A stretch of 64,000 nt of DNA from Sphagnum compactum. Lineage: Eukaryota. The stretch is from positions 14,808,213-14,872,212 of the forward strand of contig OZ234493.1 of NCBI GenBank assembly GCA_965153455.1, given 5' to 3'. The translations under genes and the position numbers were made by a program. The notes under the pieces are model-generated. The model saw only the letters and a program-made list of their open reading frames with translations. It was not told where the DNA came from and ran no database searches. This document shows, piece after piece, positions 674 to 50,145 of the stretch; the stretch's first letter is position 1; each line of letters starts with the position of its first letter.

Positions 674-3600
674 CAATGAACAAGCGTCTTTTTAGTTAGT
701 GAGATGACGACATTTTAGGCCTCTCTTTACGCCAGGTGAACTTTTTTTTTTTTTTTTTTTTTGGGGTCAATTTTGTGATGTTGCTCAAGTGGCAATCATC
801 CATAAATATATATTTAGCCAAATTTGGCGATATTCAAGATATGAAATTAAAAAATCTCTTAAGTATCGGGCCTTTCATGTTGTAGGGAATTGTGACAAGT
901 TTTGGAGATTTTTTTAAAGAAAAAAACGGGAATTTGTGAAAGAATGTTTAAAACATAGAAATTTTGAATTCACACTATATCACTTTGGATTAATGTAGGA
1001 GCTTTTGTCCCCAACGAGATGGGGTACTAAACATTGTCAAATGATTCAATACATACATATAACATATATTTATATGCATTTGCATATAGTTTGCAATGTA
1101 TGTGAATATGATGGATTTGTTTGAATTATATGGTCTCTAACTATTGAGAATATTTGCTTTTATATCTATATTTTGACATTTTTTTTACCATGGAAAACAC
1201 TTATTTTTTATTCTTTTGAATTTTTTTTTTTTTTTTTCATGTGAAGCTTAGTAACATTTTATTACTATTGTTTTTATTATTTACACATGTTTTAAAACCA
1301 CTAGTCATTTAATTCTAAACATCCGTTGAAATGCTAGCCCATGACACGACATCAAAAACATAATTAAAAATCTCACCACTTGGAATTAAAGGGTTTGTGC
1401 AAAATTTCATCGAAAATTGAACACAAAAACAAAACAAAAAGGATATTTTGTGACAAAATTCTCAAACATTTGGAATAAAAGACTCAATATCAAATAAATG
1501 CCCATTTTGATTTTTTTTCCCAACACATTTGGACTCCAAGTTCAATTTGATACATTTTTTCAATTGGGTTTTTTTACTATTTAGATAGGTTTTAAAAACT
1601 GATGGTCATTTAGTTATGAATATTTGAATGTTCAAATCTAATCGATCAAGTTTAAGTTCTTCTTCCATTGACATCAAGGAGATAACATCCATTTTAGAGT
1701 TGAAGGGGTCTATACAAAAATGAAACAATTTCTTACATATGAAATTCAAAAGTATTTCAAAATGATTGAATCGTGTGAGAGTTTTTGATTGAGAGCTTGC
1801 CTTCCAATTGTTTCCACTAATTATTGATGTTAGACATCTATGAGGTTTGCTAGCAATAAGCTTAGAAAACTTTTATTTAATTTCATTTGTTGAAGTTTAT
1901 TTCTAGAAGTTGGGTTAAAGGAAGGACTTTTTATGAAATGGTTGGCCTTATGCAACAACAAAGAATAAGAAAGTTTGTCATCTAAAAGAAAGAATACGGG
2001 TGATGGAAGTTGCAACTCAACAAAATTACATTTGAATATTGACAACCTCATGGAGATGGGATATGCATGGATGGTGACCCCCATATATAAATGCCAAGGA
2101 ATTATGAGTAGACTTGAAATGATATAATGCACAAAAAATATATAACCATAAACAAAGCGAAAACACATGATGATAGTTTGAAAATATGAAGATATGATGT
2201 GATATGGAGAATATATGATTTAAGAATATGTTTTTGAAAAATGAAAATGTACATGTTTTTTAATTGAACCCATTTGCATAATCATTATACTCTTTATATG
2301 GCAATTAAACCCACATCAAATCACAAATGATATCAAAGAAAGAAACCTAATTATTTTTTCTAGGTTTAAAAGTATGTTGTCACATTGTCAATATTATAAA
2401 TAATATTTGAAATTTAAGTGAGTCCAATATTATCTCAAACATGAAATGATTGAATTTAGGGTTAATCACACTCAACTATAAAGGGAAGTATACAAATGTG
2501 GATATGTTGATTAAGTGAATACAAACATTACCACACTTATTAAGTCTTCAAAAAGTGCACATAATTTGATAGTTTGGCACAACCATTGAAATGAAAAATA
2601 ACAATGTTATATGAAAACCCACGTACACCAACAAAATCTCACTTTTTTACAAGTAAAAAATTCCAATTAATAAACCCATTATAACACAAAACTTAGCAAA
2701 GATGAAATATTAAGTACCATGGAAAATCTCAATAATAGAAGAAAGGACACACTTCAAATATGAAAACAACAACACCCACACCTTCAACTTGATAGTCTAT
2801 GATAGTAATGTACGATTCATGCCCTTGGAGTTTCTTCTAACCATAATTGGTTTTCTCTAGCCTTAATTTGAAGTTGGGCCAACATATTTTCCCAACTTGC
2901 ACCCAAAACACAAACATGAAGATTTATCAAGTTCGAAAATAGAAATGGAGAAAAAGAGAAAAATATGCATGCAAAACAATCATGCAATCTTCAAAAATCA
3001 TGAATATGAATTCATGGTTCACCACAAAGCCAACAAAAAAAAAGGGCACTCATATCCTTTAATTGCACTTAAGTTGAAAAGATGTGACAAACATCTTGAT
3101 AAGGTACACGCAAAGTGAAAGGTTATGAGGTCTCTGAAACTTTTTTGTTGTTGGCAACCAAGTCAAGTGAAGAAAATGGTACAAAAATATTCATAGGCAA
3201 ACACAAAGTTAATGGAAATGCTTCAAAAAACCAAAAAAATCAAAGAAAGATAATATGATTTCAGAAAACCATGAAAAAACCTTACCTAAAAAAAAATGTA
3301 AAAAGATGGGTGTTGGAAAAACATGATCTTTAATAAGAAAAAAGTTCCACCCTACATAGGAAATGAGATTGGAACTTTGACACTAAAGAATTATCTATAC
3401 ATAAAACTTGTACAAATGTCACTCGATGTCTCACAAAGAATACAAAATAGTCCATTCAAAATAAATCAACACAATTAAGTTGCAAAAGACTTAATTTCAC
3501 AAAAACATTATTCTTGAAAATAGTTTGTGGCATTATCTTGTTGTTAACAATTATAGATGGTCATTTTGATGTAAGAACCAAAAGGAAAAAATGCAATAAA

Positions 3601-6251
3601 AGTCAATAAAAAATGTAAAACACTTCCAATATTTGTAATACTATTAATGCATTCCTGAGTATAAAAAGAAATATTTTGGCTTAGAAAGAAGAAAAAATTG
3701 AATCCACATTTTGCTAAATCTCCCTCCTTGCAAAAAGACACATATTGTTTTAATAAACATCGTAAAGAAAAAAAGACATCATGTTACAATAAACCATGCA
3801 AAAAGAAAATGAATGTTCTTAAAAATTTGGAAGCAAATGAAAATGAAATCACTCCATATCTTTGCCTAAAGGATAGAGCCAATAAAATTGTGTTTAATAT
3901 GTATAAAGTGATTATTTATTAGTGAATAACCATTCGGGAAAATTTGTGTGAAACCCAAATGAACGCCAAACCGCCCCAAGGCTCTATGCTATCATACATC
4001 AATGGAACTTTTTACCCTCCTAGCAAGGACCCTACATGTAAGATATTTTTTATGTTTGTTACTTGGATGGGTAGAAAACACTAACACAACTATGTTTTGT
4101 CTAGTTGTGAAATGTTGTTAACTTTATTTCATGTGGATAATAAATTGTTATCAACTTTTTATCGCTTAGCAAAATGTTACAATATGTGGTAGAGTGTTCT
4201 TTCCAAGCTTGGTCATGACTACAAAGGGGATTTATGAAGACAATGGAAAGAAGTATTATTATTGTTTTATGTGCACTTTGGAATGATGTGGGTTTGTCTA
4301 TTCCTTTTGGGAGAAAAGTAGGTGGTGGAAGAAAAAATCACATTAATGAAAATGATGAAAAAGTTTTGCAAGATGCATGATCCTAAGAGTGATGCAAGAA
4401 AGGATAAGAAGGTGGCTAAATGATGCAGTAAGCAATGTGACAATGTGGAATGTGTGGAGTTGAGTTTTGAAAATAAACATGAATATTCAACTAAAATTAC
4501 AATTGAATCATGGTGATTCTTATTTATTCTTATTTTGCTACACCAATAACAATTAAGTTAAAATGAACAATTTGTTCCCATATAACTAAAGGTTGATGCC
4601 AAGACATGAGGATACTGTGAAATGGTTTGGATTATAGAGTATGGGCTTCTAAGAAATTCTAGAGGGAATTTGCATTGAGAAGAAAAGAGTCTAGGGGTTT
4701 GAGTCTAAAGTTGGTGTTGGTGCTAAAGTTAAAAACATAAAAAACCTCTATTGGGTACCCTTGGGGGGAGTTAGACTTGCAAAAAGACAAAAGAGCCCAT
4801 TAAAACTTATAAAACAATTTTAAGAATTGATGGAACAAGAATAAAAGTCACTTTTGCTTCAATGGTTTTTAAAACCTTATATTGACATTAATAAACATAT
4901 ATGGATTGTAATTGATTATGAGGAATCGGAGAAGGAATAGGTGTTGACTCATTGCATAGAGTTGAACACGAAAAATAAAAAGCACCATTTTGCATTACAT
5001 AATAAGGGCTTAATGTATCAACTAAAAAAACCCACTAAACATTGAGAGTTTTGATCTTTGGCCATATTTGAAATCAAAAAATCAACACGGTAGATCAAAG
5101 TACATTAGTAGGTGGAATTGTAATTGTTGTTATTTCTTTAGGTTAAAATATCTTGGGATTACAAGTGTTTTTGTAAGATTTGTATTAATGTCATTTGTGT
5201 AAAAGGACTTTGAGTTTCAACTTTATATTTGTCAATGTGCGACATTCGAGATGCTTTATATATGTGTAGGAAGTTATTCTCATTCTAAAACATGTCAAAG
5301 GAAGCAAAACAAAAAATATAAATCATGTTAATTACTAAGCACTCCTTTTCTTTTGTTCACACTAAGTTTTTATCTCTTGACAACTTAATACATGATCTAT
5401 AAAAGTATACACATCAATTAATGAAGATGATCTAAAGGAATAATCTTTGAAGGATTTATGATGCCTTTTGTTTGTCCAATTTAAAAAATGGTGAATTTTA
5501 ATGTGGAAATTATAAATTTTTTTTTCACCCTTATTGTTTTACCCATCTAATAGTTGAAGTTTACCTTTACCTTAAGGCATATAATTGTTGTGAAAAAGTT
5601 GTAACAACAATTTACAACACAAAGCAAGGAATCACACATAGCAAATAATCAAGCAAAACCCAATCCAATGAAACAACTTTCTAACACAATATTTGCAAGC
5701 TACTTATAGTGGGTACATCTCTCCAAATGATTAAACCTACCATGAGTCTTATGAAAATCGATTTAAAAGTTTGCCCATGACATCATGCAAGAAACTAAGC
5801 ATAGATTTAGGAGTTTCTTCAACTTCAATTGAATTTATATTTGCTACTATTCAAAAAAAGGGTCTAACTTGTATCATGTATTTGAATAAAAGTCATTCCA
5901 ATCATTGTCAATCTTTATTAATGTTGTTTTTGCATGTGGATTGCAATAGTTTTCAACAAATCAAATTGCTTTAATGTTTATTTATCTATATTGATGCACA
6001 TTACATACCAACAGTGATGAAAAAATGAGTTGATTTTGTGAAAATTAAGTTTCATTTGAATGAAAATATTGAACAACATTGCATGTAACTTGAATTGAAT
6101 TCAAATTCCATTGAAAAGAATCCTATATATAAAAGCTACAGTGGTGTCTGTGTGTCCGTCTGTGTGTCACAAAACGTTTTGCGTTTTAACATTACGCCAG
6201 AACCGGCGGCAGTTAGGGCAGTTGGGAAACATCTTTGAAAAGCAAATTCTT

Positions 6252-6975
6252 AGAAATTGCCATGATGTCTCTGATCTCTGAAAAAGCTCCAAGAGACAGA
6301 CAAATGCTTCACATCAAAGCAGAGCAATGTTCAATGAGACCACATTCAAATCCCTTTTGTATTTCTCTCTGAAGAAGATGCATTCAGATCAGAGCAGAGC
6401 AATGTTCAATGAGACCACATTCAAATCCCTTTTGTATTTCTCTCTGTGTGTTTGTGTCTGTGTCTCTTTGTCTTTCAATTCATAACTTTAGATGCCAATG
6501 GCACATTCAAGAGATTTGCTGACCTCCAGAATGTAAGAATCAAAGTAAGAGCTGCAATGAATTCATAACAAAATTAAGAAATTGCCATGATGTCTCTAAT
6601 CTCTGAAAAAGCTCCAAGAGACAGACAGATGCTTCACATCAGAGCAGAGCAATGTTCAATGAGACCACATTCAAATCCCTTTTGTATTTCTCTCTGAAGA
6701 AGATGCATTCAGATCAGAGCAGAGCAATGTTCAATGAGACCACATTCAAATCCCTTTTGTATTTCTCTCTGAAGAAGATGCATTCAGATCAGAGCAGAGC
6801 AATGTTCAATGAGACCACATTCAAATCCCTTTTGTATTTCTCTCTGTGTGTCTGTGTCTGTGTTTCTCTGTCTTTCAATTCATAACTTTAGATGCCAATG
6901 GCACATTCAAGAGATTTGCTGACCTCCAGAATGTAAGAATCAAAGTAAGAGCTGCAATGAATTCATAACAAAATT
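6252..6975. repeat. Nested tandem repeats: two ~325-400 bp units containing 75-bp subrepeats
   Basis: AGAAATTGCCATGATGTCTCT starts at ~6252 and ~6577. The 75-bp unit (CAGAGCAATGTTCAATGAGACCACATTCAAATCCC...) occurs twice in the first copy and three times in the second, visible as a 25-aa repeat in ORF 6652-6885. Confidence 0.9.
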
Positions 6976-7972
6976 CAACAATCTTCATAAAAAAAATTCA
7001 TAAAAAAATTCATAGGCCAGCAGCTTGAAATGTTTTGGAATTGGAGCTGTAAAAGCCAACAAATTGTTTGTGTACAGGTGAACAGGGGCAGAAAATGGGT
7101 AAATCTCTATTGAATGCGGTTATATTTGTTAGCGTCAGTCCCTTGCTCTCTTCCTCTCTATGTATGTCAAGATTGCAGGCCCAATAACATCTGCTGCAGG
7201 TGGAGTGGAGAGCACCTAAGATTGTAATGTGGATGATCCTCTGTTACTTAATTTGCCACTATCAGTGTCCATCTTCCCTGTGTCAGTCATTTAGGTGTGA
7301 GAGTAGAATGTAACACATTGATACCATTTGATCCTGTGCAGGTTTGCAGGTCAGTCAGAGCCATTATTGCTTTGATTCTTTTTTTCTTGCACAGGGTACA
7401 AGGATTTCTGAATGTGACTCATTACGTGCAAGGCCCTCCTTCCTGCTTCACCTATGCCAGGTGAGTGTTGGAATATGCAGGTACTCAGCAGCTTTCCTTG
7501 CAGTATGGACCTATAGGAAGGACAACAGAAAATCTCATATGTTAGATTCTTGGGACTGATAGTTTGTATCTATTTTCACCAAGTTTGCTGATGAAGTGGA
7601 CACAAGTACCCTCCATGCTCCACTTATCAATGGGTAAAGACTTGAGTCAGGGTTTGTTTGTCTCATTTGTTTGATTGTGTGCTTCTAAGGTCTGCAAATC
7701 ACCAAGTGCTGGAATTAGGTTGCAAAATGGATATTATCAGGTATTTTGAAAACTTAGCACCAAAAGTCTATATTGTCAATGATGCAACAGAAAGAACCAA
7801 TATGGCATTGGAGACATGTATTCTGCAAATTGCAAAGGACCTGAGAAACACTTGAAAATGGATGTGCATTGGCATCGTTGCTCCACTACATAGTGTGTCA
7901 TTGTCTACATGTCCAAGAGCATTCATGATGCTGTACTTTCTGCTTCCAGGAATTGACTGGTAGAACCAACCT

Positions 7973-8134
7973 TTCCTAAGCAATAAACACATGTCTGTGA
8001 TCTGTCATCATTTCTTTTCAGTGTAGCTTTCTCTAGCAGCTTTGCATTGGAAGTTCCTAAGCAATAAACACATGTCTGTGATCTGTCATCATTTCTTTTT
8101 AGTGCAGCTTTCTCTAGCAGCTTTGCATTGGAAG
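7973..8134. repeat. 81-bp tandem duplication
   Basis: TTCCTAAGCAATAAACACATGTCTGTGATCTG at 7973 and 8054. Confidence 0.9.
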
Positions 8135-8606
8135 TGTCATGCAGGAAACTCAGCCTGCCAAAGTAAACCATATGCATGCAAGGACAGTAGTGGGATGTAT
8201 CACCAAAGGATGGCAGGTTTCAGTGTTTAGTCCATTTGAGTGGGTTTGCTTGAGAACAACCAGCCTGTATCAGGCATGATTGACCTGAATGCTCAACCTA
8301 GACACTTGCTGTCTCAAGCCTCTCTCCCTGACAAAGTAATGCATTTCTTGCAACAATTGTATGATAACATGAAACTGTTGAAATTGTATGAAGCTGGGAC
8401 ATCAAGATTTCCTGGTATGTTCTCTATGAAGGGAGGGAGAAGGGAAGGAAATTTTAACTTATGACTTTCTTTTTTTCAAGCTATCTTGGTTTATCAAGAT
8501 CAATGAAAACATAATTTGATCACAAAAACATACAAGAAACAAAGGGTATCAATCAAATGTCCTATCTTGCTTTATCACAAAAAACATACATGACATGAAT
8601 ATTAAA

Positions 8607-10470
8607 GGAGGTATAGGTCAATCCAATAATGGAAGTTACTCTGATGGACATGGAGGAGGGAGTGCTGTGCCTTAGACTGACTCTGGTGACTTCCAGAGGC
8701 CAGCTATGGGTGGAGTAGGTGGGGTTAATAATCAGCAAGTTCAGCAACAAAACACATATGGAAGACCCAGTGTTGCTCCTCCCTACCAACCTGCCCCTGT
8801 TTATTCAAATAGAGGACCCATTGCCAAGAATGAAGCACCTGCCAGAATTGTCCCAATTGCCGCCTTGAATCCATACTAAGGTCGGTGGACTATCAAAGCA
8901 AGAGTGACTGCCAAGAATGATGTCCGCTGTTTCCACAACGCCAGGGGAGATGGCAAGGTTTTCTCCTTCGACCTTTTGGATGCAGATAATGGAGAGATTC
9001 GAGCTACTTGCTTCAACAATGTTGTGGATCAGTTCTATGATAAAATTGATGTGGGCATGGTGTATTTCATTACAAAGGGTTCTCTAAAGGCAACAAACAA
9101 GAATTTTAATCATTTAAAAAATGATTGGGAAATATTTCTGGAGTCATCATCAACAATGGAGCCTTGCTTTGAGGGAGATGGATTAATCCCTCAGCAGCAG
9201 TTTCACTTCAGGCCTATTGGTGATGTTGAAAATATGGAAAATAATGCAATGGTGGATGTCATTGGAATTGTTGTGTCAATCAATCTCTCAAGTACCATTA
9301 TGCGCAAGAATGGCATTGAGACACACAAGAGAACTTTGCAGATAAAGGATAGATCTGGCCACAGTGTGGAAATCACAATGTGGGGCAGTTTTTGTCAAAA
9401 AGAGGGGCAGCAGATACAAGATCTTTGTGACTCTGGCCAGAACCCTGTACTGGCTGTGAAGGCAGGTAGGGTCAGTGATTTCAGTGGCAAATCAGTTGGA
9501 ACAATATCTTCAACACAGCTCCTTATAGATCCTGATATACCGGCAGCACATCAGCTTCGGGATTGGTTTGATGGGGAGGGACGACATTCAGTTTCCCAGT
9601 CAATTTCCAGGGAAGGTGGTACTGGCATGCGAACTGAGCTCCGCAAAACTGTCTCTGCAATCAAAGATGAAGGACTAGGCAGAGGTGATAAGCTTGACTG
9701 GATAACTGTAAGAGCTACGGTCTTCTATATCAAGCCCCACAATTTCTGCTACACTGCCTGCCCACTTGACAATGGTGGTAAGCAATGCAACAAGAAAGTG
9801 ACCAACAATGGCGGTACATGGCGGTGTGATAGATGTGATCGCACTGTACCGGAATGTGATTACAGGTCAGTCTTTCAGTTCCTAATTATTCAAGAGACAT
9901 TGTCTTGGTTATAACCCTGGTGGTCTATTGTATGAGGGGGAGCCTTTGTTTAACCATAATTAGTAAAACACCACTGTAGGGGCAGGGTATGTGGAATTGC
10001 ATGTTCTTCCCATAATATGACAGTGGAGGATGTCATTGAAAGTTTGTCAAATCTTGCAGTGCCTCTTTGGGTTCCTATTCAGAACTTAATCAATTGGCTG
10101 CAGGTATTTGCTTAACATCCAAGTGCAAGATCATACGGGTCCAACATGGGTTACAGCCTTCCAGGAGGTTGGCGAGGAGATTATGCAACACCCAGCAAAA
10201 GAACTTTTCTTATGGAGCCAAACTGATAACCAAAAATTCATTGAAGCAATACAGAAGCTGACATTCACGGAGCACCTCTTTAAGCTGAAAGTGAAAGAAG
10301 AGATGTACAATGATGAGTAGCAGTTGAAATTGACAGTGGTTAGAGTAGATCGTATTGACTGGGTTGCAGAGAGTAAGCTCATGATAGATTCGATTACAAA
10401 GCTTAACCGAGGAGAAACTATTGATGTCCCAATTGGTAGTGGAATCAATGGTGGTAGTACCTATACTTAG
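8607..10470 (+). pseudogene. RPA1: Replication protein A 70 kDa subunit (RPA1A/C-like) pseudogene, 5'-truncated, inside a Helitron
   Basis: NRGPIAKNEAPARIVPIAALNPY*GRWTIKARVTAK, OB-folds A and B (GKVFSFDLLD...EIRATCFN; VDVIGIV...RTLQIKDRSG), and the C4 zinc motif CPL..CNKKV..WRCDRC. A GT-AG intron at 9866-10103 joins DYR|YLLNIQVQDHTG. In-frame stops at 8673, 8877 and 10318. The N-terminal DBD-F is missing. Confidence 0.92.
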
Positions 10471-11503
10471 TCTATCTGTCTGTCTGTGAGGTGTGGTCAT
10501 AACCTTATGCGGAGAATTTGGTGTCTGTGTGTCCGTCTGTGTGGCTGGAGTGGCATAGCCACGGGTTACCCACTAATATAACAAGATACAAATCGGTGCA
10601 CAAGGTATTGAAAATCTACTTGTCATTTCCATCAATTCATGACTTTGGTGTTGAAAAAAAGTTAGTTTAAAAACAAAAGATTAAAAAATAACAACTTTGC
10701 ATAATCCTTACTATGGTCCTTGACATTTTATTTGAAATTGTCAAGACCCTTTATGTACAAAGGATCCTTTCTATACTAGTTTTGAGATCCTCATCAATAG
10801 AATGATTTATGTAAGGGGACCAAAAAATATGGGTTTATGGTGTATAACTTAGTTCATTTGTTTATTGAAGACCTTGTGACAAGTTGTGGTAAACTTTTCA
10901 AAAATCTTTAGATGATAATTAGGTGTGCCACATGTATGGTGGATGATTTAAATGTGAGTTAACTCCTTAGAAGAAGCTTCATAATGCTCACATTAATGTT
11001 TGTAATGTGGCCTAAAAATAGCCACACAAAAAAAAATTATTTAAAGAAAATTTAAAATGAAATTAAAATTCAAACCCAATATTCCCCAATTTGGCAAAGG
11101 CAAGATAATCATTGATATTAAAAAAGGTTCTAACTTATGTAATTTTGTTCTTAAATCTAGACCATCCACATGCAAGCATCAAAAATTAATTTAAAAAAAT
11201 AAATATTGAATAAGTGGGAAGAGTGTTGGAGATAGCTATAATTTTTTGTGTGAATTTTCCCAATAATGCAAAAAAATTGAAATTAAAAATGGAATATTTT
11301 GTCATATATTCTTTTTTTGGGGGGGAAATTGTTTAATATGCTATATGAGGCAAAATAAAAAATTTGAAAGGAAAAAATACTGGAACTTGGATAGTTTTGT
11401 GCAAATAAAATAAAATAAAATAATCTAATATCCCTCAATTTGAGATAGGTAAGAAAAATAATTGCGAACTTGTGTAACTAAGTGTTCTTGAAATCTAGAC
11501 CGT

Positions 11504-11512: not shown

Positions 11513-11602
11513 AGCATCTGAAAATAACAGTATTGAGTAAGTGGGGAAGAGTGTTGGAGAGTTTTGTCCTCCGAAGACGAAAGGAAGGAAAGCTTTGCGG
11601 CG

Positions 11603-14600
11603 ATGGCGATAGCGATGGCGCTCGGTCCCTTGACGACTATCTCTGGACATCCCAAGTTGGCTTCTGCGCTTTTCGGTTTTGAAGGAGGTGCTTCGCGTCC
11701 TCACTCCCGTGATGGCAAGCTGAATTGTAGGCAACGAGGAGTTTCTACCACAGCACAAGCTGCCAGGCAAAGCGACTATGGAGGTGAGTGGATCTCTTGG
11801 TTTCTTCTCTACGGGAGTAGGGGAATTTTTGCGCTGGTTTGTGTGTGCTTTCTTTTCTTTTCAATACTTAGGCGCTGAGTTTAGAGATCGGTTCGATTCT
11901 TTCATATGGAGTGTAGTCGATGAGCTTTTGTGCGAGATTTTTATCTGTAAGGTGCAATTTGATAGATGTTATTGTTGTTGTTTGGCTTAGCATCAACGAT
12001 TGATTGTCCATTGCGCTAGGGTTTCTGGTCTCCTTTAAGAACTCGCTGGAATTCTGTTGCCAATATTTCATGTGCATTCGAGATGTGTGACTCGGTTTTT
12101 TTTAGGGGATCCCTGAGATATCACTGGATATGTCGAAGTGTGGAAAGCTAGGGTGGCCGAGTTTTTGGGAGCAATTTGAGTAATTAGCTGCCTGGTTGAG
12201 CCATTACAAACTGTGCCTACTTGTTATAAGTTTAGCAATAGGAAAGAGGTGGTAATTCAGGCAGCTTGAATCGGTAGACAAAGTCTTTGTTCTTCCGCAG
12301 ATTTGCAAGAATTTCAGATGAAGACAAATGGTTTGGAAAATGCATTGGTGAAAACCTTAGGGGGTGCATCCTTTTGAGGAAAGGTTCTTGAGGGATTGAG
12401 ATGACTTTTTGAGGTTTATGCATGAGTTTACTGAGTGCAGCTGCTATGGTAGAACCACCTACAGATTGGAGACAAAAGTCAAAGCCTATCAAGCCTGGAT
12501 CCACTTATCCTGCCAAGGATCACTGCAGGCATGTTCTTCAGCTAAAAATCCCTTTGCAATTGAGTTGAAAAAATCCTAGTTTCTGAAATGTGCTCTAGAT
12601 GCTGTGTGCTGCTTTATGACTCTTGGAAGCAGAACTGCAGGGTTAGGCTGTTGTATGGTGCCACTGTTTCTTCCTACATGCTGTGAATGTTATCTGCTTG
12701 TCATCGGGTGCAACTGCAGACTGAAGGGGCAGTGTGGATGGCAGTCAATGTGGATTGTGTGACACATATTACATAGCACATGTGCGAGATGCCTGTGCAT
12801 TTTTAGGAGATGGCATGTCCAGGGTTGAGGTGCCTTCTCCTCCCTTGCTTGTTTAGACTGAATGACGTTGTCATTTTAGAGCTTGTGTCAAGCCTAACCA
12901 ACGACTGAAATGAATGCATTGCCACCATTTTGGCATGTATTCATGGTGTCAAAAGGCACTGGAACCTGAGGTTCATGGACGTGGTCGGGATCCAAATGCA
13001 ATGGACGATCTTTTCTTTGGAGTACATGATGAAATGTTGTATGCTCGCAAAAGTGAGCCTATACAAGGTGCGTGATTGGTTCCAGCATGATCATTCAGAG
13101 GATTCTTTTTGAATGTCCTCAGCCGCCCGATCTGCACCAGCATCTTTGAACATGTATCTCCTCTTTATTGATGCAAATCCATTCAATTTGTTGCATGTCT
13201 GACAGGTGCCCAATGGACTGGTATTGTAACAGCAATTTCTATGGAAATGCTGCGAGCAAACATTGTTGATGCAGTGGTTTGTGTACAAAGGTTGAGCCCT
13301 GTTCCCTATATCACATTTTGGAAAGGAAAAATAAAATTATGTTTGTTCCTAGATGTAGTAGACATAGGAAATGAGAGGCAGAGGAAGACTTGTGATTTGT
13401 TGCTAATATGTTTGAGGCCCTGGTCTTTGCAGTGATCCAAATGACAGGTTCAGCCCTAGACCAGTTCTTGCCAGGTTGAGTTTCCTTTCAACCTTCTCAT
13501 TGATTTGAATAAGTTTTGGTTTCCCTCTCAAGTACAATTGCTAATGAGTTGAAACATTCCCATTGAATTTCGATTGAAGGCCATCAAGTACTTTGAAGCA
13601 CGTTTATTTTAGCAAGGACACCTGTTCTCTGAAGCACAAATTGCTTTCCTCCCTGTATTTGCTACTTGTGGACAAATTTGGATATTGAATCCTGTTTATA
13701 ATATTTCCATCTTGGGCTAACCTCAGCACTTAGAGACAGATTGCATCTTGATCTTGGGTACAGAACAGTTGAGGAAGTTTTGGCTGCGCGAGGGGTGAAG
13801 CCTACTCTTTCACCAAACCTGAATACACTAGCACTAGTTGAGGTAATTGAATCCATTCTGATTCAGTAGGTTGATCATCTGTTTCTGCATTTGTCTAACA
13901 TCATCTATTGCCATGGTGAACCCAACAAGAATGTACTCATTGACCTACCCTCAGGGTGGTTGATTGTCCTTTCTGTAGTTTGTTGGAGAGGTTGTTGGAC
14001 TGAGATGTCAGAGGCTAGGTAGACTTAAGCGGTTGTTGTACTTGCATTGATTGCTTTGTGTTGGGTTGATATCCAATCCATTGATATGTGTGTGGCAAAT
14101 GCTATTGTCTATTTCAGGCTGCAGGGGTGAAACGATTACTCTTTTGTGGTGTAGGGTGTCAAGTGCAAGGTAGGACCCCTTGATTCCTTTGAGTAGCTGC
14201 TATACCTGCTTTCAAATTTCAAAGAAAGTAATCAGCGTCTGGAACCAGCTGGGGTCGTTAAATGATTCAATTGCGTCATGGAATATTTGAAAGTGTATCT
14301 TGGAATGATTTGATTTTGCACATATATGCTGTTTTATGTTCCTGACTCTTGGATATTTGATGCTTCAATTTTTTGTCTGTTTAGCATTACGGAAAGTGGA
14401 AAAGTATTTGGGATTGGAAAAGCTGTATGTTCTTGGCACCAATTGTGGTAAGCACGTCAGCTACAGCAACCAACGTTTCCACTACCTTTAATGCATGATG
14501 TTTTGTAGCACATGTTTGATGTCGCTTTCTGACAGGGAAGTCAAGCTTGAATGTCAGTGCAAGTCAAGCTTGAAGCTCACTCATTGGAAAATGCAAACCT

Positions 14601-32610: not shown

Positions 32611-33482
32611 AAGTATTTATTAGTTGAGATGTTCAGACTTCAGACAAAACACCAACAACAGTTGAAAATAAGAAATGTTCCATAAAGTCCCCCCCCCAAA
32701 AAAAAAACCCCCATAAACTCACAAATTTAGGTACACACTAACAACAAGCACTTTGGAGAGCATTTTTCCTCAAAATGTGGGACCAGTTGAAAACTACATC
32801 ACTTCCTGCTCTAATGTATCTCCCCAAGCTTTTAACTCCACTTTAAGAGGTCTGTGTCTTTTACACACAAAGTGCAATCACAAGAAAAGAGGGGTGAGGA
32901 AAACTGGAGAAGAAGAGGACAGAAAGTGAGAGAGAAGAAGAGAGATCCAAGACTGGCAAGAAACAGAAGAACAAGAGAAGGAATTGATTACACAAACATA
33001 ATTTAGCCACAAGAGAAGAGAAGAGAAGAGAAGAGAAGGGCAGATAAGAGGGAGAAAGAGAGCAGAGAACTATAGAAAGATCAAAAAGGAGAAGAGAGTA
33101 AAAACAACTAAAGAAGAGACAAGAAGTGAAAAGAAGACTAAGAGATTAGAGTATTACAAGAGGAAAATAGATAGGAGAAAAAAGAGTAGAGAAACCAATT
33201 GGAGAACAAGAGTTGAATTAGGAAGTACCCAAAAGAGGAGGAGAAGTGGTATAGACACGAGAAGAGGATTGAAGCCAAAAAGGAGGAGTTTTGAGAGGGA
33301 AGGAATTATATAAACATAAAGGAAAAATTGAAGAAGAAGAAGAATTGAAGAATTGGAGGATTGAAGAAGAATTGAAGAAGAAGAATTGGAGAATTGGAGA
33401 AGGAGGAGAAGAATCACAGGGCTTTGGACTTGATCTGGGATTTGGGTGAATTGGAAAAAGAAAAGGTTGAGGAAGCTGAGAA

Positions 33483-36292
33483 ATGAGGGAGATGGTGTTG
33501 ACAGGAGGTGAGCAGGCAGTGGGTGGAGATCAGCAACAGCAGCAGAGATGGGTGTTGGTGACTGGGGGAGCAGGCTATATTGGGAGTCATACAGTTTTGC
33601 AGATGTTGCTGAAGGACTACAAGATTGTGATTGTGGACAACCTTGAGAATTCCTGCGAGGAAGCTGTGCACAGAGTTAGAGAATTGGCTGGCAACAATGG
33701 CCAGAACCTCATCTTTAAGCAGGTGTGATGATGAAGCCCAGTCTAAAGTGTAGCACATGCATGCATGCAAAAACTCCACAAGAATCTTCAGACCCTGTCC
33801 CTCTCTTATCAATTCCTTTATATTTCTTTCTTCACTTCTTGTTCTGGAGGTTGGTTGCATGTTGACAAAATTCTTTTCATTTGAGCAAAATCTAAACTTG
33901 TCAAGGAGATGCTGAATTTTCCACAAAGACAGGTCTACATAATTTTTTAGTGTGATACTAATACATGGAGAAGAACTCTGAGCTGCAGGTGGATCTTCGT
34001 GATAAGGATGCATTAGAAGAAGTCTTCAAGACTTTCCGGTAATGCTTTGTGCATACTGCAAATTCATTTCTGGATTGTGCAAGGAGTCTGCGAATTGCTT
34101 GCAGGCAGCTTTTGTGAATTCCTTGTCCAACTTTGAGGATTGGGCAAATTCTTTCAGGACATTTTGTAGGAGATTCCATCCTGAAAACTGACAAAGAAAG
34201 AGCCTTGGATTGATTGCTTGGCAGATTCAATGCTGTAATTCACTTTGCAGGCTTGAAAGCCGTGGGTGAAAGTGTTCGCATGCCTTTGCATTATTATAAC
34301 AACAATATAATCGGTACTTTGAATCTCTTGGATGCCATGACAAGGCATGGATGTAAGCAGGTAAAAAAAAGCTACTGCTTCTTCTTCTCACAGTGCTCTC
34401 CAAGTTTCTTCTTCTTCTTCTTCAGAGAATTGTAATTGTCTTGTGATGAAGATGATGATGGTGATGATATGGCCTGCATGCAGCTTGTGGATTGACAGTT
34501 GCAACCCTAAAGGATAGATTTGCAAGTGTAAATCTGTCTGTCTTTCTCTTCACATTGTTGGTAATCTTTTTCTTGGCTACATGTGTACGTATGTCCATTT
34601 TTGCAGATTGTTTTCTCATCATCTGCCACAGTTTATGGACAACCCAAATCTGTGCCTTGCACTGAAGAATTTCCTCTTGAAGCCACCAACCCATACGGCC
34701 GTACTAAAGTAAGCTGAACATGATTGGGTCCTGGGTTGTCACTTGGTTTATCATCTGACATTGTGTAGTTCTATGATCAATGCAGAATAGTGTGTTGATC
34801 AAGATGCTGGGTTTTTACAGGTTTTGGCTTCCTTCGAATCAAAATCACTGAGTGCAGTTTGTGTTTTCGTCTGAATCATGCAGCTTGTTATCGAAGGCAT
34901 CTTGAAAGATGTTCATGTAGCAGATCCCACTTGGAGGATTGTGTTACTCCGCTTCTTCAATCCAGTCGGATCACATCCAAGTGGCCACATCGGGGAGGAC
35001 CCCCGAGGTGTCCCAAATAATCTGATGCCAGTTGTGCAGCAGGTTGCAGTTGGCAGACGCACAGAGCTAACAGTGTTTGGTAATGACTACAACACCCGAG
35101 ATGGCACAGGAGTGAGTCTTCTTCTGAATCCTCTCCTGGAACTTCTTTCAAGCTGGACATTTGAAGGCCCTGTGTTTTATTCTGGGATCTGCATCGTTGT
35201 ATGTCTGCTCAATTCTTTCTGTCTACTAGTCTTGATTTTAGTGTCGAGAATGATTTCCAAAGGTAGAGAGAGACATTGAATCTGTGTGTGTTGGGGGTTT
35301 TTTTTTCCCAGGTGCGTGACTATATTCATGTCATGGATTTGGCAGCTGGTCATATTCAAGCTCTTCATAAGCTATTCAATACTCCTGACATAGGTAAGGG
35401 AATTTATGCTCAGACTTCATCACTTGGAACTGGTTCTCTTGGTGTTTTTGGAACTTAAAAAGCTTCAAGAAATATAAAAGGGGATGTCAAATGTTGGTTG
35501 AAAAATTGACCATGAACTGTTCCATGTTCTTTAGTTCATTTTTTAATCCAAATGCACCTCTGGTTTTTCTGCTTCTACAGGATGTGCGATTTACAATCTT
35601 GGAACAGGGAGAGGCACATCTGTTTTAGAGATGGTTGCTGCATTCGAGAAGGCATCTGGGAAGGTCTAAGATCAGTCTCCTATCTGTTTAAATTTTCTCC
35701 CTTTTCATTGCTTGCTGGATTCTTCAAGGATATCATTGTATAATTTCAGACAATAATATGCAGATATCTTCAAAACATGTTTGACTCAGTTCACAAAATG
35801 TTTTGCTAATAGTGGGCTGCATTTGGGATCAACACTGTGATCAGAAAATTCCTTTGCGATTCACGGATCGTCGACCAGGAGATTGTAGCGAGGTTTATGC
35901 TGCAACAGAGAAAGCAGAAAAAGAGCTCGGATGGACGTAAGCCTCCATGATTAATTATTCAGCTTGATTGTATACTGTGTTATCAATCTTTGAAAAAGGT
36001 GCAAGTTCTTTTGATTAATTGAACTGAAAGATATTGATGTTCAAGGGTCGTGTTGGATGTTGAAGAATATTTGCCCACTGGTTATTAATTTCCAAGAGGA
36101 AGTCCTTGGAACATATGCAGAGCTAAACTCGGTATAGAGGAGATGTGCCGTGACCAGTGGAATTGGGCAAGCAAGAACCCATATGGGTATCAAGCTGCTG
36201 CTGCAAGCTCCAATGGATTGTCAAAAGCAACTCAGAATGGGACGACTGTTGACCACAACCTGACATTGCATGGAGAAGCAATTACAAGCTAA
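33483..36292 (+). CDS. UGE: UDP-glucose 4-epimerase (9 exons)
   Basis: Exons 33483-33722, 33989-34038, 34225-34360, 34607-34708, 34884-35111, 35312-35393, 35581-35663, 35845-35936, 36121-36292. Motifs [59 protein letters not shown] and RRPGD. All introns are GT-AG. Confidence 0.96.
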
Positions 36293-45082: not shown

Positions 45083-47335
45083 TCAATCCTTGGTTGAGTT
45101 CTGGGGGCAGGTTTTCAGGAAATTGAGGATGATGCGGTTATATTCCTTGGGATTCTCAATTTGAGGTATGTGCCCACAATTCTTCATCACAACCAACTTT
45201 GTTCTGCTTGTACCTAAGTGTCTGCACAGTTAATGCCTAAGTTAATGCCCTGGTCGCAAGGGCACTCCTGAAATATGTGCCCTTCCTTGGCTGTGTGCAG
45301 AATATCAAAAGGGCCATACTGGTACATGACTCCAACCTCAAGCCAAATTGTTAAAAAATGTTTCAACCATAGGCCAAAGTGCTCAAAAAATTCTAATCCT
45401 AGGCCAAAGTGTCCAAAAAAGATTTTAACATTGAACCACATTCTCTAAATATATTCCAACTTTGAGCCAATATGCATATGCAAAATTTAGTTTTGTCTTG
45501 GGGTAAACTTTCTTGACATGAGGTCTAACAATAAGCCAATATACGTGTATTATTATTATTTTAAATGTGTATTTGCATCAAATACACAAAAATTCTTGGT
45601 CCAATGGCTTAGGGCTATTACAATTTGACCCAAGGTCATTGTCTTAAGGGCATAGGACAATTGTCTTAAGGGTGTAGGACATTTACCTTAAGGGCGTGGG
45701 ACATTTGTTTTGAGAATGGATGACATTTGGCTTAAGAGAGCAAGACATTTGTCCTAGGGGTGTGAAACATTTGTCTTAAGGGTGCCAAAACATTTGTCCT
45801 AATGTTGGTCTACCCAACATACTGACTTTCATGTGAGAAGAGCACCCGGGATGGTGGGCAGTGACAAAAAAAAGTTTTTTCACCTTCATAATATGCTCGA
45901 ACTTACTGGACAAAAGAAATTCTCAAACTGCCCAAAATTTCTAAAACATGAGAACATTTTCAGAATGCCCCAAAAATTTGGGCATAAATGAAACTATCTT
46001 CAACATTAATAAGGTGCCGGTTATTATTGAGCAAAATGAGAATTCCCAAAATGCCAATAAATTTCAAGCATCCAGATTTTTCAGAGTGCCCAATATATTT
46101 TGGGCAGAAATGATAAAAATCAGCATTTATAACTTTCTAAAGCAAGCTAAAATTTCCAAAATTGCCTGAAATTTTTTCAAGCATCTTAAAAAAAAAATCT
46201 CATGAATATTTCCGAGCATAGGATTTGTTGATTTCCCAAATTCTTCAGCAAAAATGAAAAAAAATCAACCTATATAATCTGCCCAAAATATATTGGGCAG
46301 AATAAAGATTCTCAAACTAATGAATATTTTTCAAGCATTTTGAAAAATGTTTTTCAGGAATTTTTTAGAATGCCCAATTTAAAACCTAATTGTAAGCCTC
46401 AGTGCTAAATTTTTGTTACTCTTAAGTCAAAACAATAAAAAGATTCTAACCCAAGCCAAAATGGCAATTCTTTAAAATCCTAAGTCAAAATAATAAAAAG
46501 ATTCTAATCCTTAGGCCTAAATAGATTTTAACCTTTAGGCCCAAATAGATTTATCTTTAGGCCTAAAAAGATTTTAAACTTAAACCAAAATATTAAAAAC
46601 CTTCTAACCTTAAACTTAACTATTAAAAGAATTCCAACCTTAGGCTTAAACATTAAAAATATTTTAATCCTAAACCAAAGTATTGATATATTTTTTAACT
46701 ATAGGTTAAATTATTTTTAAAATAATTAACCTTAAGTCATAATTCTCACAGGAGCAGGGCGAGCCTTTTCGGCTGGAGTGGTCCTCTCTCAGCACTCTTG
46801 TTTTCAATTTCACTGAAACTTTTAGGGTTTAAAATAGCTTCCAAGTTGTCTGCACATCCTCTCATTGTGGATTCTTCTTTTTCACCCAAATTCTCATATA
46901 GGAGTGGTATTTTGTTTTCTTAGGATTAAAAAATTGAAAATAAGAAAATCCTGATGTACATGATGATGATGACTTTAAGAAAGTTCAAAGTCTTGAAACA
47001 ACCAATTTTCTCAATTGGATTTTTCAGGTTTGTGATAATGGATGATGATGAGTTAAACTCACTTGGAGCATATCGTGAAGAATGAAATTCAGGAGCCACA
47101 TTGCTTTGTATGTCACATTTGCAAGGAAGACCTTCATTCCCTTGACTGAAGATGGCAACATGAGCTCCGATATGCTGGACAGATTGCTCCTGGCAAGAAG
47201 CTCGTCCAAGCTAGTCGACACGAAATCCACCCCTGAGCTAGAAATCACCACTTTCTTCACAAAATTTGGATACATCTCTGCAATTCGAAATGCCACCATG
47301 CCACCATAGTTGGTTCCCACCAATTGTATATGGTT
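45083..47335 (-). pseudogene. Alpha/beta-hydrolase fragments (two exons)
   Basis: Exon 47335-47063 reads NHIQLVGTNYGGMVAFRIAEMYP...HDMLQ|gtgagt, with the nucleophile motif GxSYGG changed to GTNYGG. Last exon 45221-45083 reads RHLGTSRTKLVVMKNCGHIPQIENPKEYNRIILNFL...*, with the catalytic His motif. N-terminal and middle exons were not found. Confidence 0.8.
45638..45801. repeat. ~22-bp minisatellite, about 7 copies
   Basis: CATTTGTCTTAAGGGTGTAGGA-like units. Confidence 0.8.
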
Positions 47336-47616
47336 CTGAAAACCAATTTCGCCAGAGGAAAAAAAACTTTGAAATTTTGTTAACAAAAAACTTGAATTGA
47401 ATTTTCTTTAAATTAAAAAAAAAAAATGATTATGAAATGACCCACCTTTGTGATGAAGTTGTTTGGAAACACTAGAAAATCCTCACACTGAAATCCTGAC
47501 AAAAGCCTCAGAACTTCAAACCTTTCATAAAGTACACGCAAAACATGTTGAGAAAGAATTTCCAAGTTCTCTAATGGCATCTTCCAAGAATTCCAGGCAA
47601 GAATTGCCTTCTAGAA

Positions 47617-47773
47617 ACAAAATAGCAAGCCTATTGTCCACATCCGGAATGTCCATACCGGTAGACTCGGATCATCCGTATTGGGAACCGTTAGTCTCAC
47701 TTATTCCACTGGCGACTCGTCCACGTTCCCACCCTGTTCCAATGCTTTCAATCCCTCTAGTCCCTCCCCCGGA
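47617..47773 (-). pseudogene. Oligopeptide transporter (OPT family) N-terminal fragment
   Basis: My translation: [37 protein letters not shown], the conserved OPT motif SPxEEVRLTV..TDDP..P..TFRMW. Stop at 47701-47703, and the sequence is truncated after the motif. Confidence 0.85.
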
Positions 47774-47902
47774 CTGCACAAAACCAAAACCCACATCAAT
47801 CCATCTTCTTCTTCTTCTTCTTCTTGGCATCCCCCACTTTCCACAACAATCACAACAAAGGTGCAAATGGGTGTCACTAGCAGCAGTCAAGGAAAGACAT
47901 AC

Positions 47903-48535
47903 CCAGACTGGCAGCAGCAATGGGGTCCCGGTCAAATCGATCAAATATCACATCTACTGGTTGGCCAAGCCCTGTCTCTATGATTCTCACAACTGTCTCT
48001 GACTCAAATGGCGGCACTTGATCCTTCTCACAGGAAAAACAAACATCCAACCTTCAGCAAAAATAGAAAATTATTCCTTAAATCTCTCCTCCCTGATGAA
48101 GAGGAAGAAAAAGATCATGAAGAGAAAGATCATGTGGAGCAGTTGCAAAAAGACCATGAAGAGAACAACCATGCAGAGCTGCAGAGAAAAGCCTGAAGAG
48201 AAAGATCATGCAGAGCTGCAGAAAGATTGTGAAGAGAAAGATCATGCAGAGCTGCAGAAAGATTGTGAAGAGAAAGATGGTCATGCAGGGAAGCAGAAAA
48301 GATCATGGAGAGAGATCATGAGTTGCTGCTGCTACTACTGCAAAAAGATTGCAATTTGTACTACTGACCTACAGTTCTGCCAATTCATCGACATACTCCT
48401 GAGCAAGAATGTCAACACGGGTGGAGAATTGTTGCCCAATTTTGATGAAAGTTGGCCCCAATCGCAGCAACCCTTCCTTCACCCATTTCGCAAGCCTCTT
48501 CCTCTTCTCCTTTTTCTTCAGCTCTGTCATACCAC
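47903..48535 (-). pseudogene. ABC1K8: ABC1 atypical kinase (ABC1K8/OSA1-like) fragment: two consecutive exons and their intron
   Basis: Exon 48535-48369 reads GGMTELKKKEKRKRLAKWVKEGLLRLGPTFIKIGQQFSTRVDILAQEYVDELAEL*, with TAG where Q is expected. Exon 48023-47903 reads [41 protein letters not shown]|gt. Splice sites are canonical. Confidence 0.85.
48095..48320. repeat. 36-bp tandem repeats inside the captured ABC1K intron
   Basis: GAAGAGAAAGATCATGCAGAGCTGCAGAAAGATTGT repeated, with degenerate copies. Confidence 0.8.
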
Positions 48536-48983
48536 CTGCAAAACAACCTACAACCAAACTCTCCTCCTCCACCAATCTGCTGTTGCTGCTGTTGCTAATC
48601 CAAACTCTCTTCCTCCACCAATCTGTTGCTAATCCAAACTTCTCCTCCTCCACCAATCTGTTGCTGCTGCTGTTAATCCAAACTTCTCCTCCTCCACCAA
48701 TCTGCTGTTGCTGCCATTCGTCCTCCTCCTCTTCCATCATCTTCTTCTTCCGGGATGAAGAACTTGGATGGATGGATGACGCGACGGATGGATGCTGCTG
48801 CTGTTGCTAATCCAAACTTCTCCTCTTCCACCAATCTGCTGCTGCCATTCGTCCTCCTCCTCTTCCATCATCTTCTTCTTCCGGGATGAAGAACTTGGAT
48901 GGATGGATGACGGGACGGATGGATGGAAAGGACGACCGAACACCACCGCAAGAGGACAAAACCAAGGATATTATATAAGTAGA

Positions 48984-49775
48984 CTAGTGGGTACCCGTGA
49001 CCTTCAGACACTGTGAAGTCCCCCAAAAGTGAGTGGGGGGGGGGGGGGGGGGCGGGAGGGGCGAGCAAAAAGGGACAAAATTATCAAATATATTTGGTTG
49101 GTTTGAGTGTGTAGTCAAAGATATAGAAGCTTGATTACAGTTGTTTACTTCATATCCGGCTTTATAGCCAGTTTTGGCACAATCTTCTTGAGGAAGGTCG
49201 TCACATTTTTCTATGGAAGATTCCCACTGTGGCTACAAACAAAAAATCTTAGAAAAATAAAATAAAAAACAACACTGCTAGGAACGACCTGGGGTCGGTC
49301 CCTCCTGGCAACTACCTCCGTACTATGAGATAAATTGCCACATGATTGTCTCCTCCATTCCATGGATGGATGACAGGACCCCCACCCCCAATAGAAAAAA
49401 GAAAAAATTTCTCCCTTTCCCCCTCTCCCCAAAACCCAAAAAAGGAAAAAATTGGCTGCACTGATTGCATACCGAGCCTTCCTCAGTGCCTGCCTGAAAT
49501 TTTTATTATGGGCCAATACCCCTTCATAACTGGATGGATACCTATTGTGCTATAAATAGGGCAGAATGGGCAATTCCCTGAAACATTGGAGTTTTGCAAT
49601 TTAAGAAGGGCCCGCGCCCTCCCCCCCCCTCTTTGCCTTGGATGGATGAAGGGACGAATGGATGACGGGATGGACGACAGAACGGATGGATGATGGGATG
49701 GATGACGGGACGGATGGATGGAAAGGACGACCACCAACCACAACAGGACAAAACCTAAAATATTATATAAGTAGA
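48984..49775 (-). mobile_element. Short non-autonomous Helitron (792 bp)
   Basis: Minus strand: A|TCTACTTATATAATATTTTAGG at 49775. 3' end CTTCA-CAGTGTC-TGAAG hairpin then GTCACGGGTACCCACTAG|T (CTAG 48984-48987). Confidence 0.8.
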
Positions 49776-50145
49776 TATATACAGGTCTCTGTTGTTTGTA
49801 CCAAACATCTGGAAATCTCAATTCATATGACTGAAATATAGAAAGAGATACTCAGCCTGTTGCGGCGGTGGCTCCACCCATAAACCTGAATCCTTAACAT
49901 CAGGAGTAATCTGAACCGCACGCTGGGGATGGCGTGTCACTTAAGGAAAATATGTTTGAAATTTCCACACTGAGCCACAACAGACGTCCTCTTCTGGTAG
50001 CAGCTGTGTAGCTTGACTTTCAGTTCATGGAGCCCTAAAACCTTTCACTGAAAATTATGTATCAAAGGGGCAACCTTCCCAACCACAATTTCTGGCTCTT
50101 GGATATTTTTCATTATCCCCGTAGAGAGGGGAGATTATTGACACA

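Follow-up and report, generated by a model that had tools for sequence, protein, structure and literature searches.

This study asked whether an RPA1 copy that lies between Helitron ends in Sphagnum is a transposition helper newly recruited from the host or ordinary passenger DNA. The copy sits in a 64,000-nucleotide stretch of DNA, the whole of which is called the window here and whose positions are used throughout. The original prediction, made from the letters of the window, proposed that complete Helitron termini enclose a recent and independent capture of a protein that Helitrons are known to recruit.

Ends and insertion site of the element

The element occupies 6121-10576 (4,456 bases) and is a real Helitron. 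At the 5' end, the junction is A^TC at 6120/6121, with TC at 6121-6122; at the 3' end, the palindrome GTGGC-ATA-GCCAC (10550-10562) is followed by CTAA (10573-10576) and then by T. All 32 of the raw DNA reads that cover base 10576 give G, compared with A in the window; because of this, the family end is CTAG and the final A of the window is a private change. Its stem measures 5 bp, 10 nt separate the palindrome from CTAA, and a different structure is predicted as the minimum-energy fold (z -1.09). Taken alone, it would be weak evidence for a Helitron. The terminal features are as follows.

6015-6120, unstranded: host dispersed repeat, the insertion target, which resumes from 10577 (many loose ends and joints from its other copies)
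6121-6166, forward strand: Helitron 5' terminus, with the TC start after the target A and a 25-nt GT-rich motif at 6142-6166 (loose-end pile at 6120; approximately 100-fold or more depth in the bin; similar 5' ends in loci L032 and L028)
10519-10543, forward strand: exact repeat of the 25-nt 5'-end motif (two matches in 0 of 100 shuffles)
10544-10576, forward strand: Helitron 3' terminus, comprising the palindrome at 10550-10562 and CTAA (family CTAG), then the target T (sequence, fold, and read data)

In the raw DNA of X21, 41 reads break off at 6120 and 60 do so at 10575, each group continuing as loose ends into unrelated sequence. Furthermore, a joint that skips exactly 4,456 bases between A and T was found in X8 and X10, two contig sets from different studies, at depths of 35.3 and 26.5, respectively. 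Both its depth and its 28-base short side agree with contig records 16 and 8, which continue through the unique flank to 12600 at single-copy depth. The joint represents the empty orthologous locus, A^T, without duplication of the target. The analysis relied on this 4,456-base joint alone; most of the others around the termini trace to further copies of the repeat on the flanks. Because of the loose-end piles and the empty-site joint, the boundaries are settled independently of the palindrome, and because an orthologous empty site exists, the insertion is recent or polymorphic. The complete termini claimed by the original prediction were thus confirmed. That prediction named as a refutation an RPA1 gene standing at the orthologous locus without the termini; this did not hold, as the site is empty, and the intact host gene lies elsewhere (L001).

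The depth of the terminal bins is far above that of the flank and their flanks are heterogeneous, which indicates dispersed copies with common termini; related ends occur in L008, L028, and L032. The element is a canonical, non-autonomous Helitron (HLE1): it begins with TC, ends with CTRR, is inserted at A^T without duplication, and has dispersed copies. No RepHel ORF was found inside the element or elsewhere in the 64-kb window, and the element therefore does not qualify as an autonomous Helitron.

The exact 25-nt direct repeat at 6142-6166 and 10519-10543 links both ends of the element. According to the reads, the sequence preceding 10541 differs in most family members, and in some of them 6247 is followed by a second 5' end. 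This mixed sequence around the repeat suggests nested mini-elements.

The RPA1 piece, its donor gene, and the other cargo

The RPA1 piece (8609-10464, 1.86 kb) contains three whole OB domains, with Pfam matches to OB/tRNA_anti-codon, REPA_OB_2, and Rep_fac-A_C (the DBD-A, DBD-B, and DBD-C models). It lies among other captured sequences and repeats.

6228-6281, forward strand: sub-terminal segment common to the 5' region of the RPA-carrying Helitron in L032 (sequence match)
6252-6975, forward strand: internal repeats, 75-bp tandem units within a 273-bp duplication (repeat analysis)
7003-8479, forward strand: mosaic cargo from other host genes, with an 81-bp tandem at 7973-8135 (RNA-read and depth tables; repeats)
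8480-8608, forward strand: non-RPA sequence joined to the RPA1 piece and common to L005, bringing an in-frame ATG at 8595-8597 (alignment)
8609-9865, forward strand: captured segment of host RPA1 exon 3, comprising half of the linker, DBD-A, DBD-B, and the start of DBD-C; stops at 8673-8675 and 8877-8879, a 48-nt in-frame deletion at 8675/8676, and a 3-nt deletion near 9811 (Pfam, alignment)
9866-10103, forward strand: host intron 3, GT-AG, phase 2, 238 nt, 13 differences from L001 (alignment, hand count)
10104-10464, forward strand: captured segment of host RPA1 exon 4, the rest of DBD-C; stop at 10318-10320; ends before the Gly-rich zinc-knuckle tail (Pfam, alignment)
10465-10509, forward strand: junction sequence common to L005 and L006, beginning with a remnant of the 5'-end motif of another Helitron; TAG at 10468-10470 (alignment)

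The host gene is intact in L001, where the DBD-F exons, three introns, and two CCHC knuckles in a Gly-rich tail are all present. Alignment of the copy to it begins mid-linker within exon 3, runs across intron 3, and stops early in exon 4; because this intron is retained, the capture took place at the DNA level. By hand count, the exons differ from L001 at 52 of approximately 1,550 bases (approximately 96.6% identity). The second host paralogue (L007 and L017) is only 84% identical to the window copy; therefore, the donor was an L001-type gene. At the protein level, the copy is 97% and 90% identical to Sphagnum-type core RPA1 and 73-76% identical to RPA1 of other mosses and lycophytes. Its best named protein matches are from Sphagnum fallax, and several of the sequencing runs in which it occurs are moss metagenomes, in line with a peat-moss source. 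The alignments indicate that the piece derives from one of the two Sphagnum-type RPA1 A/C paralogues. The small number of introns and the two CCHC knuckles of the Gly-rich tail liken the donor to the plant RPA1 A/C group, with the RPA1C-like layout set out in PMC4731521. The copy has kept DBD-A, DBD-B, and DBD-C, has lost DBD-F, half of the linker, and the C-terminal Gly-rich zinc-knuckle tail, and carries three stops.

These results bear out part of the original prediction. The predicted RPA1 copy with DBD-A, DBD-B, and DBD-C, one intron, and three stops was recovered through Pfam and alignment, the cellular RPA1A/C motif quoted in that prediction is present, and DBD-F, whose loss was predicted, is missing from the copy and present in L001. 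The proposed recent and independent capture from the RPA1 A/C gene of the host itself was likewise upheld by the exon identity, the retained intron 3, and the finding that the copy does not belong to the PHRPAs (see below). The prediction did not include the loss of the zinc-knuckle tail, the 48-nt and 3-nt in-frame deletions, or the content of the 5' 2.4 kb of the element, where tandem repeats lie together with fragments of further host genes.

In the cargo upstream of RPA1, RNA reads match 7170-7205, 7440-7471, and 8247-8336 and then run into unrelated sequence on both sides; these segments are short pieces of other host genes. The cargo at 7003-8479 yielded no Pfam match at the curated cut-off. 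In the reads, the cargo outside RPA1 is amplified to a depth similar to or greater than that of the RPA1 piece. The 5'-end motif at 10465 also occurs after a CTAG end in L036 and after RPA1 in L026; alone, it is a 3-mismatch match that 16 of 100 shuffles reach. Low-depth RNA reads of opposite orientation were observed over the 5' part of the element (6121-7002), probably from a family copy inside some transcript.

Related copies, coding decay, and transcripts

We compared 37 loci. Four hold the donor-type host gene, two hold the second paralogue, and nine come from other plants or relatives further removed; the remaining 22 are non-host copies, with some sites counted in more than one data set. 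The sister elements that the original prediction had recommended seeking therefore exist, and their RPA1 pieces occupy Helitrons elsewhere that differ in both their 5' and 3' ends and in where RPA1 is truncated. The terminal motifs of the window element itself were absent from the 37 loci, in which related but different ends were found. The RPA1 piece is multicopy, at roughly 4-20 times the flank depth: in X21, a Hi-C library, the mean depth is approximately 12 over the RPA piece versus approximately 0.5x on the flanks, and single RPA contigs reach roughly 4-11 times the flank depth in X8 and 4-8 times in X10, read depth being a rough guide and contig depths not equal to copy numbers.

The copies begin at no fewer than five 5' truncation points (in intron 1 for L036; in intron 2 or exon 3 for L008, L028, L032, L006, and L033; and in the middle of the linker for the window and L005), which ignore the domain borders, and the RPA1 piece ends at four different 3' junctions. 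Helitron 5' ends of two sequence types lie upstream of RPA1 in L008, L028, and L032; by eye, no 3' end was found for the L008 element. From 10509 onward, L005 and L006 no longer follow the window; the hairpin and CTAG^T in which L006 terminates differ from those of the window element. The sequence immediately after RPA1 in the window, L005, L006, and L026 resembles the Helitron 5' end of L036. Judging from these junctions, the copies appear to be composite elements that exchange ends, and the series seems to record stepwise truncation and end-swapping.

Several copies exhibited further rearrangements. The DBD-A region is tandemly duplicated in L010, L029, L032, and protein P0126. In L013, L014, and L027, which apparently represent a single site across three data sets, an internal RPA1 segment of 689 bp (matching 8867-9555 of the window) adjoins sequence that we take, from its motifs, to be LTR-retrotransposon pol. 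The minus strand of L016 (5187-6842) has an unbroken 551-codon ORF without introns, presumably a calcium-dependent protein kinase to judge by its motifs. The annotated Sphagnum fallax proteins P0004 and P0123 seem to represent decayed RPA1 copies carried by elements and not genes of the cell. The junction of L008, L015, and L016 is also where P0004 stops; gene models such as BDL97_17G018700, which ends at this same junction, are probably such decayed copies.

Eleven copy-bearing loci were scanned for long ORFs, and 10 of the 11 had no RepHel ORF. The exception was L028, which has a 1.1-kb RepHel-like fragment (3394-4530) lying between the two copies of a direct duplication of approximately 55 bp, directly before the 5' end of the RPA-carrying element. 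We take this fragment to be RepHel on the basis of its motifs and of atlas neighbours at 0.89 with Helitron_like_N on 28-49% of members; the fragment had no Pfam match. L028 was considered as an autonomous RPA-RepHel element and rejected, because the RepHel piece lies outside the TC end, the duplication of approximately 55 bp brackets it, and L008 has the same 5' end without RepHel.

The window copy, six of the 22 non-host copies, two host alleles, and the second paralogue were aligned in full. All seven element-borne copies carry stops or frameshifts, and L005 has additionally lost the intron acceptor. The recommended search for RPA copies with open frames or RepHel thus returned only broken copies (7/7) and one RepHel piece among 11 loci, outside the element end. 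Substitutions were counted by hand rather than through a formal dN/dS analysis, and ancestral states were assigned by comparison with L001, L011, and L007; a number of sites are ambiguous, and some of the changes scored as private also occur in copies in the read sets. The ratios of non-silent to silent changes were 11:7 for the private changes of the window, 24:9 for L005, and 17:6 for L004 (pooled 52:22, approximately 2.4:1), compared with 4:14 on the host L001 branch. On these counts, the copy branches appear near neutral. Summed from the inferred ancestor down to the window copy, the changes numbered 19 non-silent to 15 silent, a ratio higher than that of the host branch (chi-square p approximately 0.02-0.04) and somewhat below that of L004 and L005 combined (41:15; chi-square p approximately 0.09). 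The changes are mostly C-to-T and G-to-A, the decay expected for methylated transposon DNA.

The three stops of the window are nearly private, as 7 of 7, 17 of 17, and 9 of 10 DNA reads are open at these sites; thus, the amplified master may have had an open frame. The in-frame ATG at 8595 and TAG at 10468, both in flanking element DNA, bracket a 545-codon DBD-A/B/C frame, the gene caller began the sister protein P0177 at the same ATG, and both deletions on the path to the window copy preserve the frame. The subfamily progenitor seems to have had this 545-codon frame open. The shared branches show 8:8 with no stop and two in-frame deletions, but they are short (approximately 1%), partly ambiguous, and may include host history; given how short they are, a young capture would be expected to have a master frame still open. 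The shared changes also affect residues conserved in the host and other mosses, namely the D of NNGDGTW, which is lost beside the zinc-binding cysteines, and the D of KPDNF, which is changed to H; an F-to-L change at 9725 is likewise shared (21 of 21 DNA reads).

Sense RNA reads of one run (X22) cover the RPA1 piece. Among the difference sites listed, window alleles were absent from the RNA at the 8877 stop (0/7), at 10318 (0/9), and at 9093, 9098, and 9694 (0/17 each), and the A at 9725 was found in 0 of 14 RNA reads versus 21 of 21 DNA reads. No RNA read covers 8556 or 8673, the sites of element-specific sequence. At 9811, where the copy is missing three host bases, these bases appear in none of the RNA reads (depth 8), a pattern that may reflect reads clipped at the gap. 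The RNA over the RPA1 piece is best read as host transcripts.

Passive cargo versus recruited helper

The flowering-plant PHRPAs are a known lineage of Helitron RPAs. As PMC4683698 describes them in the sections relevant here, they fall outside the core RPA clade, are approximately 21% identical to each other, and occur only in monocots and dicots. Because the present copy is core RPA1 and near-identical to the host gene, it is not a PHRPA, and because it is not a PHRPA, its capture was independent of theirs. An RPA-like gene within Helitron termini and without RepHel in the element does recall the Mothra mother element of rice in that account, a likeness of layout only; in view of the 97% and 90% identity to Sphagnum-type core RPA1, the 73-76% identity to other moss and lycophyte RPA1, and the retained host intron, descent from the PHRPA lineage is scarcely credible. 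It is only slightly less improbable that a host RPA1 duplicate or pseudogene came by chance to be flanked by unrelated Helitron ends. The ends may indeed stem from different ancestral elements, as the divergence of L005 and L006 at 10509 and the different hairpin of L006 illustrate, but all 4,456 bases from TC to CTRR are absent as one block in both X8 and X10, which refutes this explanation unless the contigs are misassembled.

A weightier alternative is an incipient functional capture, in which masters expressed a trimmed RPA70 core (545 residues, DBD-A/B/C, lacking the tail and the protein-docking DBD-F) that promoted the rolling-circle amplification of the masters themselves, as in the semi-autonomous Mothra, the broken copies being silenced offspring. 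The ATG and TAG that flank all three DNA-binding domains, the start of P0177 at that ATG, the frame-preserving deletions and nearly private stops, and the several-fold amplification of the RPA1 piece all fit this explanation. The window path of 19:15 below the 41:15 of L004 and L005, the stop-free shared branches, and the missing host bases in RNA at 9811 count against passive cargo. An incipient functional capture is nevertheless unlikely in our judgment: shared changes had already reached conserved residues (NNGDGTW, KPDNF, and the F at 9725), neighbouring non-RPA cargo is amplified to a similar or greater extent, no expression was seen in the one RNA run, truncations vary among families, and no RepHel ORF was found in 10 of the 11 loci scanned, with the L028 piece lying outside a TC end that L008 shares without it. 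The view that the element recruited RPA as a transposition helper is thus not supported. Neutral decay in a single copy, which the original prediction held would reduce RPA1 to passive cargo, was largely what we found, given that all seven aligned copies are broken, the ratios are near neutral, the truncations vary, and no copy-specific RNA was detected; the copies, however, are many rather than single.

We consider it highly probable that the element is a non-autonomous HLE1 Helitron with a dead host RPA1 A/C fragment as passive cargo. Because the examined copies are broken and unexpressed, this appears to be ordinary passenger DNA rather than a newly recruited helper, and ordinary Helitron gene capture with an unusually apt cargo is the most likely explanation. 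A single capture would have taken a longer stretch, from intron 1 to early exon 4, possibly through 3'-end bypass or template switching. RepHel supplied in trans would then have copied the element, which may have lost sequence in steps, acquired fragments of further genes, and exchanged its termini. The part of PMC4778049 on Helraiser demonstrates capture by 3'-end bypass, and the end-swapping of the Sphagnum copies is in line with that behaviour.

Among known systems, the element is most readily compared with the gene-fragment Helitrons of the maize type, with which it shares a TC start, a CTRR end preceded by a putative hairpin, A^T insertion without duplication, intron-containing pieces of multiple genes, composite ends, and decay of the cargo; it differs in its unusually long cargo (1.86 kb and three whole OB domains) of RPA1 and in its moss host. 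PHRPA, compared here by description, is in rice an ancient gene of high divergence that stands outside core RPA, has several exons, appears intact and transcribed, and has a RepHel-bearing sister family according to PMC4683698, whereas the present piece is a recent, near-identical host copy, broken in every aligned copy, with no RepHel-linked form found among the loci scanned. The HELIANO report (PMC11417382) describes autonomous families of HLE1 and HLE2 in which the RPA domain keeps a constant position beside RepHel; the elements described here likewise contain an RPA domain inside a Helitron-like element, but no RepHel-linked arrangement was found among the loci scanned. The only Sphagnum example in the consulted main text of HELIANO is an HLE2 with a GIY-YIG domain. 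Our literature search found no report of RPA1 capture by moss Helitrons; the supplementary captured-domain tables of HELIANO could bear on this.

The locus is a well-delimited further case of Helitron gene capture, and it illustrates that an RPA Pfam match inside Helitron ends need not signify a functional PHRPA. According to PMC4683698, Helitrons have acquired single-strand binding proteins independently at least three times, and biochemical assays are still needed for the role of PHRPA in transposition. If the functional capture were true, Sphagnum Helitrons would provide a further, very recent independent gain of a single-strand DNA binding protein, and a first step toward a PHRPA-like state would have been caught with the donor gene and intermediates still in the genome. 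If the masters were under selection, the question of why Helitrons repeatedly gain such proteins would become directly testable.

Outside the element, RNA depth indicates that a transcribed host gene begins approximately 1 kb downstream of the 3' end (11537-11878 onward). Other host-gene pieces lie at 33414-35279 and 47024-49850; from their motifs, we take these to include a sugar-nucleotide epimerase near 34875 and an ABC1-type kinase near 48369. A weak Pfam match marks an alpha/beta hydrolase piece at 47024-47404.
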